Positions 58,399 to 60,827 of a stretch of DNA of 64,000 nt are shown in pieces. The stretch's first letter is position 1; every line of letters starts with the position of its first letter. The notes below the pieces were generated by a model that saw nothing but the letters and a program-made list of their open reading frames with translations, ran no database searches and was not told the origin of the DNA. The stretch lies in the NCBI GenBank assembly GCA_964412505.1, contig CAYPOM010000006.1, positions 9,437 to 73,436 on the forward strand, in the 5' to 3' direction. A program made the translations under genes and the position numbers. This stretch comes from an uncultured Alphaproteobacteria bacterium (GTDB lineage Bacteria > Pseudomonadota > Alphaproteobacteria > UBA3830 > CAYLKK01).

Positions 58399-58474
58399 GC
58401 CGAATTGGCTCAGCTGGTAGAGCGGCTGATTTGTAATCAGTAGGTCGGGGGTTCGAGTCCCTCATTCGGCACCA
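58399..58474 (+). tRNA. tRNA-Thr (UGU)
   Basis: 76 nt. Acceptor GCCGAAT/ATTCGGC, D-arm GCTCAGCTGGTAGAGC, anticodon loop TTTGTAA, T-arm GGGGG-TTCGAGT-CCCTC, encoded CCA. Confidence 0.92.
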
Positions 58475-58655: not shown

Positions 58656-58700
58656 AAAATACTAATAACTTAAAAAACATATAAAACCTCTATTAATACA
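58656..58700 (-). repeat. 45-bp relic copy of the toxin-gene translation-initiation region (copy A)
   Basis: 42/45 identical to 60590-60634. It covers the RBS, the ATG (58680) and the first 8 codons (MFFKLLVF vs MFFRLLVF). It then diverges into a 25-codon ORF ending at 58603. Confidence 0.8.
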
Positions 58701-58712
58701 AGGTAATAATAC

Positions 58713-58745
58713 AAGCTGGGCTTTAAAAAACATCCAGCCCAGCTT
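58713..58745 (-). terminator. GC-rich hairpin immediately after the immunity-like ORF
   Basis: AAGCTGGGCT (58713-58722) pairs with AGCCCAGCTT (58736-58745): a perfect 10-bp stem with a 13-nt loop, 5 nt downstream of the stop at 58751. The trailing U-tract is weak (GTATTATTA). Confidence 0.5.
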
Positions 58746-58750
58746 AAAAG

Positions 58751-59110
58751 TTAGTTACACGCCTCTTCTCCTAATCTTAAATACTCTTCAAGTTCATCAT
58801 CTTCTGATGAGAACTCATATTTATTAATAACATAATCCCACAATCCTGCTTCTTTAATTTCTTCGCGAGTTGCAGGTCTTGCATACGTAGGCAAGTCATA
58901 AATTTTATTTAATCTACAATCGAAAAAAGCTTCTTTTCCAATGTCCAGATGGGTCCTATAACAATCCTGTGCTTGAAATACTACGCCAATATTTGGAATA
59001 TATGATAGAGTAACTTTACAATCTAGCCAATCAAAAAAGCAAACTTCACCATCTGGGGACACGCTTTCGCCATTCGTATAATCAACAATATATGGATTAT
59101 AATTCGTCAT
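58751..59110 (-). CDS. small acidic protein, candidate cognate immunity or antidote to the upstream 505-aa protein
   Basis: ATG at 59110 (MTNYNPYIVDY...) lies inside GATGACGAATTATAA, i.e. a 14-nt overlap with the upstream stop. 119 aa, cytoplasmic-looking, with an acidic C-terminus (SSEDDELEEYLRLGEEA). Confidence 0.55.
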   Translation of the reverse strand: MTNYNPYIVDYTNGESVSPDGEVCFFDWLDCKVTLSYIPNIGVVFQAQDCYRTHLDIGKEAFFDCRLNKIYDLPTYARPATREEIKEAGLWDYVINKYEFSSEDDELEEYLRLGEEACN

Positions 59111-60614
59111 CCCATTTTTCCCCGTGCAATAATGGTCTTCTACTTGACGGATATGCATCCTTTAACCGATTAGTTCCCTTTTCAACTACTATAGTAATAT
59201 AATCACAATTTGTATTCGGAAACACTGGATGAGTACCACCAGTTTTGCTGGCTAAAGATACAGTTCCACCAGAGTATTCATAACCAGCATTTGAAAATGG
59301 AACAACATAATGGTCAAAGCCGCGACCTTTGTAGTCAATTTTTGTTACAGGCTCAATTCCTAGTTCATGAGCTTTTCTCCACGCTAGCTCAATTTTTTGC
59401 TTTGGGGCACCATAAAAAACACCATTCTTTACTTTAGCAGGATTGAACTGAGAATGCTCAATTTCTATATGTTTGTACGCTGGAATTCCATTTGTTCTCG
59501 AACCTACAAAGTCCAAAGGCATAAACTGTTTCACAGATTTACTTTTTTCGCTTGTACCAGTTTGTCCTTTATGCGTTACTGATTTAGAAACATATGTATC
59601 TTTAACTACTCTTCTGCTGAGTAAATTTTGTTGTTTAGAAAGAGCTAAAGCTTTTGAAATAGGTAATTTTTTGGCTATTGCACCAGTAAGCCCATAATTT
59701 GCTACAAAATCTACAAAGAAGTCACATGTTTTGAGGTATGATGCATACAAACTTTTATCTTTTCTAGCAGCGTGCCAAGATAATTCATCTCCACCTTTTT
59801 CTAGTACATTGTTGACTAATGCTTCAATTCCGCTAAACACAGCGCATGTAGCTGCAGCAGCTACTAAAGTTGTTCCTCCGGTTTCAGCTGCACTGGCGAG
59901 GACTACCCTTACGTTATTTAGCAAAATTCCTGTGTAGTAAGTCTCTATTAGAGAAATTATCTTTTGATATTTAGCTGGATTTTCTTCTCTAAATTTTTCT
60001 ATATCGTATCGCAGAAAAGTAGCTCTGCGCATTATCCCATTGATGAGCGGAAAATCCTTTTGATTCCCAACTAAATCTAATTGCCTCTTATCACGCCAAG
60101 AAATTCTTTTCTCGTATTCTTTAGGTATAGATCTATCTTCTTCATATTCATCAAACAAAAGATCATCATATCCATCTTGATCACATTCTATCTTAGCTAA
60201 AGCAAAAAACAGCCATGCATCTATCTCTAGGATTTCTTCATCATTGAAAATACAAGAAATTTCCTGTTTAGTACGCTCTAACGCTTTCCCTGAAAGTCCA
60301 GAACGTGCGTAAGCTTCTACAATCTCATCTTTAATAGGATGAAATCGAATATCATCGTACCAATCTTCTTCTATCCTTGGTTCTACTATTCCATGATACT
60401 CAGGAGTATAATCTAAATATGAGTCAATGTGCTGCTGTTGAAAAGTGCTTTGCGTTTGCTGCTGTAGATTAGGTGTAGCACCAATCGCATAATTAAATTC
60501 CGTAATAAACCTGTCTGCCTTTTGTAAACCTCTCTCAAGTTTGTCAAAAAACTTAGCTCCATCTGCATCAAACGCAAATAAAAATGATAAAAATACTAAT
60601 AACCTAAAAAACAT
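59097..60614 (-). CDS. secreted modular protein, candidate polymorphic-toxin-like effector
   Basis: 505 aa. Signal peptide MFFRLLVFLSFLFAFDA. An acidic region. An Ala/Gly/Thr-rich hydrophobic helix pair with a TG motif (ASAAETGGTTLVAAAATCAVFSGIEAL, aa ~240-267). A Ser/Lys/Thr linker. A distinct C-terminal ~130-aa module (aa ~365-495) with the HIEIEH motif. Confidence 0.55.
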   Translation of the reverse strand: MFFRLLVFLSFLFAFDADGAKFFDKLERGLQKADRFITEFNYAIGATPNLQQQTQSTFQQQHIDSYLDYTPEYHGIVEPRIEEDWYDDIRFHPIKDEIVEAYARSGLSGKALERTKQEISCIFNDEEILEIDAWLFFALAKIECDQDGYDDLLFDEYEEDRSIPKEYEKRISWRDKRQLDLVGNQKDFPLINGIMRRATFLRYDIEKFREENPAKYQKIISLIETYYTGILLNNVRVVLASAAETGGTTLVAAAATCAVFSGIEALVNNVLEKGGDELSWHAARKDKSLYASYLKTCDFFVDFVANYGLTGAIAKKLPISKALALSKQQNLLSRRVVKDTYVSKSVTHKGQTGTSEKSKSVKQFMPLDFVGSRTNGIPAYKHIEIEHSQFNPAKVKNGVFYGAPKQKIELAWRKAHELGIEPVTKIDYKGRGFDHYVVPFSNAGYEYSGGTVSLASKTGGTHPVFPNTNCDYITIVVEKGTNRLKDAYPSSRRPLLHGEKWDDEL

Positions 60615-60634
60615 ATAAAACCTCTATCTATACA
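60590..60634 (-). repeat. 45-bp translation-initiation region of the toxin-like gene (copy B, functional copy)
   Basis: AAAATACTAATAACCTAAAAAACATATAAAACCTCTATCTATACA. See copy A at 58656-58700. Confidence 0.8.
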
Positions 60635-60827
60635 ACATGACTATAGACTATGCCCATAGTTAGCGTAATTCAACAGAAACTTCATTATAACGATAAAAAT
60701 GTAAAAATTGTGTTGATAAATGGCAACAATAAAAACAGCATATACTTGATTTTATAATATCTTATATTTTAAGCAATTTTACGATAATTATGATAAACTA
60801 TTTTGTATTTAAGTATATAGGAACATA

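Follow-up and report, generated by a model that had tools for sequence, protein, structure and literature searches.

Polymorphic toxin systems, such as CdiA-CT/CdiI and Rhs-CT/RhsI, form a well-established class (Zhang et al., 2012; PMC3482391). In Rickettsia, the CRCT/CRCA modules are small C-terminal toxins of the Rhs or contact-dependent inhibition (CDI) type that lack a giant carrier and are paired with small antidote genes; they occupy recombination hot spots adjoining tRNA genes, tRNA-Thr included, and have frequently decayed (Verhoeve et al., 2022; PMC9111745). Toxin-antidote loci with novel N-terminal parts and varying tips have also been described in 'Candidatus Bodocaedibacter vickermanii', an endosymbiont of Bodo saltans, and were considered possible host-addiction systems (PMC8163844). 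Here we analyse a pair of overlapping genes on contig CAYPOM010000006.1 (assembly GCA_964412505.1) of an uncultured alphaproteobacterium, within a 64,000-nucleotide (nt) stretch of DNA that is called the window throughout. One gene encodes a modular protein of 505 amino acids (aa) and the other a small acidic protein. We consider it likely that the pair is a polymorphic toxin-immunity cassette on an uncurated carrier. This reading rests on the exchange of the C-terminal tip and downstream gene in a relative, on a tip that is shared with Rhs and CdiA tips, and on the small genes that lie downstream.

Like polymorphic toxin systems, the locus combines an N-terminal carrier that is conserved with a variable toxin at the C-terminus; the junction between the two is demarcated, a small gene lies directly downstream, and recombination scars are present. 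It departs from the usual pattern in that the carrier contains no TPS, FHA, YD/Rhs, PAAR, LXG or other known trafficking domain, and in that a truncated copy of the gene start, in place of orphan tip modules, lies downstream. Compared by published description, it shares with the Rickettsia CRCT/CRCA modules an AT-rich alphaproteobacterial setting, a nearby tRNA-Thr gene and a small putative antidote partner; unlike the window pair, the CRCT-1 antidote is reported upstream of its toxin, and a signal followed by a helical pre-toxin carrier is absent from the description of these modules (PMC9111745). The loci of 'Ca. Bodocaedibacter vickermanii' have orphan modules behind full-length toxins, contain toxin and immunity domains that Pfam recognises, and are linked to a type VI secretion system (T6SS), none of which was seen here. 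The concept is thus already established, including in Rickettsiales and protist endosymbionts, and the present locus is an extension of it, not a new principle. New here are the carrier, a so far uncurated tip family together with the Zn-ribbon protein that partners it, and the clarity of the flanks at which exchange takes place. The parts of the gene pair are as follows.

59097 to 60614, minus strand: gene for the 505-aa candidate polymorphic toxin precursor, from the list of open reading frames (ORFs)
60555 to 60614, minus strand: signal-peptide-like hydrophobic N-terminus, aa 1-20, MFFRLLVFLSFLFAFDADGA (Kyte-Doolittle hydropathy >1.5)
60120 to 60554, minus strand: acidic, lineage-specific N-terminal region, aa 21-165 (27 D+E against 13 K+R; low AlphaFold confidence)
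59619 to 60119, minus strand: conserved all-helical pre-toxin module, aa ~166-332 (homology to eight relatives; helical AlphaFold model)
59520 to 59618, minus strand: Ser/Lys/Thr-rich linker, aa 333-365, the recombination junction, inside which similarity to P0002/L001 ends
59127 to 59519, minus strand: C-terminal toxin domain, aa 366-496, a putative RNase with key residues H382, H387, K394, D486 and Y488
58751 to 59110, minus strand: small acidic ORF, the candidate immunity protein, 119 aa (MTNYNPY...), from the ORF list

Among 5.8 billion proteins, two whole-length matches to the 505-aa protein were found, one of which is the protein itself and the other P0002. The two proteins are 66% identical from residue 1 through the Ser/Lys/Thr linker (to ~aa 370 by BLASTP) and dissimilar thereafter. 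At the DNA level, homology to L001, the contig that encodes P0002, runs from 60759 to 59543 and stops at ~codon 357, inside the linker, and the P0002 gene is followed 9 nt downstream by a different small gene, one of the DUF6980 type. An earlier reading of this stretch, made from the letters alone and referred to here as the sequence-only reading, had proposed a swappable toxin cassette with a small downstream gene; P0002 bears this out, since it keeps ~357 codons and swaps both the tip and the gene that follows. A second case is provided by a related metagenome-assembled genome (MAG; 'uncultured Alphaproteobacteria'). Its contig L004 is syntenic with the window (KdsB, S9 peptidase) and ends where the toxin gene begins, and its contig L005 (1-1320) holds a decayed cassette in which the toxin gene is reduced to an N-terminal fragment with a stop. 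After this fragment come a tip of 88 aa that is of the P0006 type, a DUF6980 protein of 213 aa and a hairpin, and beyond the hairpin a truncated 'MFFMLLVFLSFLFAFDANGAKFFGL*' toxin start and an IS630-like transposase fragment. The survey of relatives that the sequence-only reading had called for yields other tips and other downstream genes in both P0002/L001 and L005, and the downstream gene changes along with the tip.

The exchanged segment is bracketed on both sides by sequence that does not change, and the elements concerned are these, with the neighbouring tRNA gene.

60615 to 60759, minus strand: conserved upstream block, with a promoter-like TTGCCA-17-TACATT at 60726-60698, then the ribosome-binding site (RBS) 'agaggtttt', then the ATG
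60590 to 60635, minus strand: upstream copy of a 46-nt direct repeat, made up of the RBS and start of the intact gene
58712 to 58746, minus strand: terminator-type hairpin at the end of the cassette, with a stem of 11 bp (-20.3 kcal/mol; z = -3.05 relative to shuffled sequences)
58656 to 58701, minus strand: truncated duplicate of the toxin-gene RBS with the first ~10 codons (MFFKLLVFYG...), which forms a direct repeat with 60590-60635
58399 to 58474, plus strand: tRNA-Thr(TGT), flanking landmark of the island

On the 5' side, DNA homology to the cassette in L001 extends from 60759, 145 nt 5' of the ATG, to the ATG itself, at 78-95% identity. On the 3' side, the outer stem of the hairpin (AAGCTG...CAGCTT) reappears 3' of the downstream genes in L005 and L001, and the hairpin-plus-remnant junction of the window aligns with that of L005 despite the other tip and downstream gene there. 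The direct repeat that brackets the gene pair is 46 nt long and 93% identical, with a spacing of 1934 nt, its downstream copy lying just after the hairpin. The shared 5' block, the swapped tip and downstream gene and the shared 3' junction together indicate, at the level of sequence comparison, that the tip plus the small gene is the variable unit, and that the 5' block and the 3' end on either side of it are conserved. With both conserved flanks visible, the locus is a clear example of tip and antidote replacement. A tblastn search of the window found no second tip or carrier fragment, and only the 46-nt start duplicate lies 3' of the cassette.

Contig L001 shows a further peculiarity. An incomplete gene upstream on the contig overlaps the small gene near-identically and gives a weak DUF6980 match. 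The two ends of this 2-kb contig (1-46 and 1999-2044) overlap imperfectly, at ~41 of 46 nt by our own count, within the DUF6980-like gene, which suggests tandem toxin-antidote cassettes left unresolved by the assembler.

A word-indexed search for homologues returned very few proteins; 50 hits came from exhaustive HMMER searching of 1.84 billion representatives. Most of these (39 of the 50) align to aa ~350-496 of the window protein, in nearly every case at the very C-terminus of the hit, where 1-47 residues remain beyond the match, and the proteins that carry the tip span 99 to 3804 aa. The carriers include proteins with RHS repeats (P0021, L013), with TPS and Fil_haemagg_2 domains (P0028), with Fil_haemagg_2 and DUF637 (L015, L016, L025) and with an Rhs-core end (P0051), besides short proteins. 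In an alignment of 22 sequences (A2), H382, F400, P404, W412, Y436 and G444 are invariant, and H387 and K394 nearly so. By homology, then, the tip belongs to a widespread family that is found at the ends of Rhs and CdiA-type effectors too, as expected of the polymorphic-toxin tip that the sequence-only reading had seen in it, and in those proteins a small gene lies directly after it. None of the 22 members gives a meaningful match in Pfam, NCBIfam gives none, and the family profile finds chance matches only among PDB sequences. The family is thus missing from Pfam, NCBIfam and, by sequence, the PDB, yet many metagenomes contain it on effectors of the Rhs and CdiA types.

The genes that follow the tip were surveyed at 25 loci, 21 from a metagenome scan with the core alignment of the tip family and 4 fetched earlier. 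At 20 of them (19 of the 21 from the scan), an ORF of 74-85 aa encoding a Zn-ribbon protein lies directly 3' of the tip, often with a 4-nt overlap. These partners share the pattern CPxCxQG...CEDCESEW...T-x-E-E...W (alignment A5) on Rhs, CdiA-type and short carriers alike, and are found among L012-L031, L008 and L009 (for example L013 4143-4367 and L016 4373-4600). In Pfam they give sub-threshold Zn-ribbon matches only, 10 of 13 members being sub-threshold to Lar_restr_allev. The recurrence of a small partner directly after the tip at 20 of the 25 loci argues strongly that the tip depends on a partner of its own, and the Zn-ribbon protein is probably its cognate, uncurated immunity family. Tip and Zn-ribbon partner together constitute a new, testable toxin-immunity family, with a putative RNase as the toxin.

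In the window, the place of this partner is taken by the 119-aa ORF. As the sequence-only reading had stated, the two frames overlap by 14 nt (59097-59110 in the ORF list and the sequence): the ATG of the small ORF (MTNYNPY) lies within gATGacg in gATGacgaattataa, and the toxin frame ends ...tgg gat gac gaa tta taa (W D D E L *). Both frames are full length, with no frameshift or stop. The small protein is indeed acidic (isoelectric point (pI) 4.2; 24 D+E against 10 K+R); it would be 135 aa long if begun at the upstream ATG at 59158, the start chosen by gene callers. By our estimate, an ORF of 119-135 codons would occur by chance at exactly that site with a probability of ~4e-5, for one frame at ~32% GC. 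The possibility that the small ORF is spurious was rejected. Its position, overlap and charge, and the behaviour of the tip family, make an immunity protein the most likely identity of its product, by analogy with the partners found elsewhere.

We weighed these data against a simpler account, in which an ordinary periplasmic or envelope protein happens to have an unrelated small neighbour and no toxin-antidote relation exists. That neither protein matches Pfam or NCBIfam and that the small ORF has no relatives would suit it, and yet it fails to accommodate the C-terminal swap in P0002, the fact that Rhs and CdiA tips are homologous to this one, and the consistency with which small genes follow the tip across its family. 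We regard this account as highly improbable. The specific reading of the 505-aa protein as a housekeeping periplasmic enzyme was rejected.

For the cassette, the likely activity of the toxin tip was approached through its structure. The C-terminal module is basic (pI 8.7) and carries its pair of histidines in AYKHIEIEH (aa 379-387). Its AlphaFold model (predicted local distance difference test (pLDDT) 83.4, predicted template-modelling (TM) score 0.77) consists of a helix, a strand, a helix and then four to five strands. A Foldseek search of the PDB placed 5e3e_D and 5e3e_B on top (E 0.18 and 0.33, probability 0.72 and 0.57, TM 0.39-0.49), and all other matches had a probability of <=0.16. Chains B and D of 5E3E are the CdiA-CT toxin of Yersinia kristensenii (Ykris), an RNase A-like protein with catalytic His175 on helix 1, Arg186, Thr276 and Tyr278, the last two in the C-terminal 'KIITGYPTP' (PMC5435912). 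In the tip family, the His on helix 1 is invariant, a Lys stands 12 residues further on, just ahead of strand 1, and the last strand contains '(I/V)(I/V)T-x-(Y/F)-P'; the Tyr/Phe alternation agrees with that reported for the Ykris family (PMC5435912). As in CdiA-CT(Ykris) (5E3E, PF18431), a basic residue follows the helix-1 His by 11-12 positions, and the His-to-Thr spacing is 85-105 in the tip family against 101 in CdiA-CT(Ykris). His382, Lys394 and Tyr488 of the window protein therefore mirror the CdiA-CT(Ykris) catalytic layout, by motif order and model and not by any significant alignment. The tip family differs in having a second conserved His (H387) and Lys in place of Arg, and the partners differ too, being a Zn-ribbon protein (tip family) or the 119-aa acidic ORF (window) as opposed to the all-helical CdiI of Ykris. 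Given the top structural match to 5E3E and the shared His/Lys/T-x-(Y/F)-P layout, we put the chance that the tip acts as a metal-independent RNase at about even. Of the nuclease or RNase-type tip suggested by the sequence-only reading, the part that stood is the RNase A-like CdiA-CT as best, albeit weak, Foldseek match. A tip of the BECR, EndoU or colicin type was rejected, there being no Pfam match among the 22 members, no PDB sequence match and none in the top 50 Foldseek PDB matches.

The carrier that precedes this tip gives no match in Pfam or NCBIfam, in keeping with the sequence-only reading, which had remarked on the absence of a delivery domain of type V secretion system (T5SS), T6SS or Rhs kind. 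The other elements that it had picked out by eye (the hydrophobic N-terminus, Ala/Gly helix region, Ser/Lys/Thr linker, His pair and tRNA-Thr) are all present in the sequence, and the GC hairpin after the small ORF is there as well, at 58712-58746 with a stem of 11 bp. The first 17 residues of the 505-aa protein are identical in P0002, and the N-terminal regions of the carrier relatives P0006 and P0022 also hold hydrophobic, signal-peptide-like segments. Residues 1-20 look like a Sec-type signal peptide, with A-D-G|A as a possible cleavage site by our own reading. The acidic region that follows (aa 21-165) was matched solely by P0002 and the fragment P0005 in the HMMER search.

The pre-toxin module is, by contrast with this lineage-specific region, homologous to regions of P0006, P0007, P0010, P0012, P0018, P0022, P0027 and P0048, in which it is followed by diverse C-termini; in all, it stands ahead of at least eight other tips. 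In P0022 it precedes a Colicin-DNase/WHH nuclease and in P0048 the window's own tip type; P0006 shares a common C-terminal type with L005 (44% identity), and in P0007, P0010, P0012, P0018 and P0027 the module leads to further C-termini, several of them unclassified. Its conserved E-T-G motif (aa 244-246) lies within an Ala/Gly-rich hydrophobic hairpin (aa ~237-271, VVLASAAETGGTTLVAAAATCAVFSGIEALV), which is the sole strongly hydrophobic stretch besides the N-terminus on the Kyte-Doolittle scale. The sequence-only reading had proposed a check of this domain against PT-TG (PF14449), which the module resembles in lying directly ahead of a variable toxin and in having a conserved T-G in a stretch rich in small residues. 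Although the E-T-G motif is conserved, the comparison failed: the window protein does not match PF14449 at E<=1, and 0 of 11 members of the middle-domain family match it, or anything else in Pfam, at E<=10. As judged by these profile searches, the pre-toxin module is a separate, uncurated module distinct from PT-TG. The linker beyond it, in which SKSVTHKGQTGTSEKSKS spans aa 343-360, has a counterpart in P0004, where a similar S-rich linker stands ahead of the same toxin domain.

AlphaFold modelled aa 21-365 as all-helical at an overall pLDDT of 50, with per-10-residue blocks of 70-84 in the pre-toxin module. When this low-confidence model was submitted to Foldseek, ClyA-type alpha-pore-forming toxins came out on top, non-significantly (E 0.37, TM ~0.12). 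This raises the question of whether the helical middle domain could itself be the toxic principle, inserting into or forming pores in membranes through its hairpin, with the C-terminal domain serving binding or some other role. The hairpin, as the sole hydrophobic segment besides the signal, would fit such a function. The ClyA-type matches are, however, meaningless by score, and a conserved middle domain with a variable C-terminus, which in one relative is a recognised nuclease, is the signature of a carrier and not of a payload. A pore-forming middle domain is accordingly very unlikely.

Several findings weigh against the interpretation of the pair as a toxin-immunity cassette on a novel carrier. 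Concerning the antidote, the 119-aa ORF has zero Pfam or NCBIfam matches and forms a singleton cluster with no detectable relative, seen at the window locus alone in three runs. It has no BLASTP similarity to the Zn-ribbon partners and contains no CxxC pairs; hhalign against these partners gives a probability of 16.6%, over a 23-residue tail only ('ATREEIKEAGLWDYVINK'). Nor does it resemble the gene that overlaps and follows that of P0003, whose tip, 60% identical, is the closest homologue. The cognate immunity gene of the sequence-only reading thus stands as regards an adjoining, overlapping, acidic ORF and is left without homology support. Concerning the toxin, the RNase assignment is weak, as the E value and TM scores of the best Foldseek match indicate. 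PF18431 is matched neither by the tip-family consensus nor by the 22 members at E<=10, whereas 5e3e_B matches it at 8e-29, and when hhalign compares the tip family with the 5E3E toxin, whose sequence was recovered via an X-padded query, only 9 columns align, at a probability of 6.7%. The window protein moreover has Asp486 (codon 59157-59159) at the position corresponding to Thr276, which is occupied by Thr in nearly all relatives; the closest tip homologues, P0003 and P0004, keep this Thr, and two other family members have Asn. Asp486 may weaken the window toxin. Concerning delivery, Pfam and NCBIfam identified no known export or delivery machinery for the 505-aa protein, so that the step from periplasm to target is conjecture.

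The substitution at Asp486 bears on a further alternative, in which the cassette is a decaying relic: its frames are intact, but the toxin is catalytically dead or its export lost, and the locus is heading for loss. Several observations would fit decay: in the equivalent cassette of the related MAG the toxin gene has an internal deletion and is accompanied by a truncated start and an IS630-like fragment, the window itself has a truncated duplicate start downstream, and most Rickettsia CRCT/CRCA modules are degraded (PMC9111745). The window pair nevertheless retains two full-length ORFs and the invariant His, Lys and Tyr, the Thr position is also Asn in two other members of the family, and the identical locus was recovered from three sequencing runs. 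On balance we think it unlikely that the cassette is a relic, and a functional toxin-immunity cassette is preferred.

Which cells such a toxin would act on is a separate matter. No T5SS feature (TPS domain, FHA repeats, VENN-type junction or cdiB neighbour) was found, the protein has no Pfam domain, and the immediate neighbours of the gene pair are an S9 peptidase gene and tRNA-Thr. Features of an Rhs/YD-repeat effector are likewise missing, with no RHS_repeat match and a length of merely 505 aa. Instead, the same tip that rides on Rhs and CdiA-type effectors here rides on a small carrier made of a signal-like segment and an uncurated helical pre-toxin module alone, which poses the question of exit and entry for polymorphic toxins of reduced or host-associated bacteria. 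One answer is that the target is a eukaryotic host: the same cassette would then be an endosymbiont addiction or host-manipulation module, with the toxin released into the host cell and the antidote guarding the bacterium before export or being co-delivered. The lack of contact-dependent delivery machinery in the protein (Pfam) favours this, as do the AT-rich genome (32% GC), the occurrence of the carrier's near relatives on similarly AT-rich contigs and in a MAG, and the precedent of a protist endosymbiont whose polymorphic toxin loci with novel N-termini were suggested to serve host addiction (PMC8163844). On the other hand, the intracellular lifestyle of this organism is a supposition, and the Rickettsia CRCT/CRCA modules near tRNA hot spots have been read as interbacterial weapons (PMC9111745). 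The same tip family also occurs on Rhs and CdiA-type carriers. Such carriers serve in interbacterial competition. A host target is fairly unlikely.

The cassette could operate as follows. Sec would export the precursor, and some further route would then release or present it. The toxin domain would enter the target cell and cleave RNA without a metal, His382 acting as general base or acid, Lys394 stabilising the transition state and Tyr488, in the last strand, completing a site of RNase A or CdiA-CT(Ykris)-like layout. The 119-aa acidic protein, produced by coupled translation, would bind the basic toxin domain and block it in the cytoplasm of the producer. New tip-antidote pairs could come in by homologous recombination at the two conserved flanks, the 5' block from promoter to linker and the 3' end, which would consist of the hairpin and the 46-nt copy of the gene's own start. 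Taken further, the signal peptide and the hairpin-bearing helical module might amount to self-sufficient delivery, in which AT-rich, endosymbiont-like bacteria use a Sec-exported carrier to bring nuclease tips into a rival or host with no T5SS, T6SS, Rhs or dedicated apparatus, and shuffle these tips via the 5' block and the 3' start-copy patch. This extension is doubtful.

The wider setting of the cassette is otherwise unremarkable. One flank holds GatB, GatA, S18 and S6 and the other the S9 peptidase and KdsB, and the genes of the window are ordinary alphaproteobacterial housekeeping genes (AddAB, RecG, TamA/B, RNase E/G, Lnt, GatA/B, S6/S18, KdsB) in a genome that is AT-rich (~32% GC). The source samples are SRR14160763-65. 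The assemblies L002, L010 and L011, from three independent runs in which the locus is identical, all end in tRNA-Thr, 320-325 nt past the small ORF (window ~58426-58431). This shared break point hints at strain variation or repetition at the junction. Beside AddA/AddB, amid housekeeping genes, a 1086-aa ORF (window 22337-25597, minus strand) has no Pfam match at E<=10 bar one chance match, and may be a lineage-specific surface or effector protein. Finally, the S9 peptidase gene (60828-62879) contains a perfect 30-nt tandem duplication at 61776-61835 (plus strand), so that EKFADINFLQ is encoded twice; the orthologue in the related MAG (L004) has one copy of this sequence and is 673 aa long, against 683 aa in the window.

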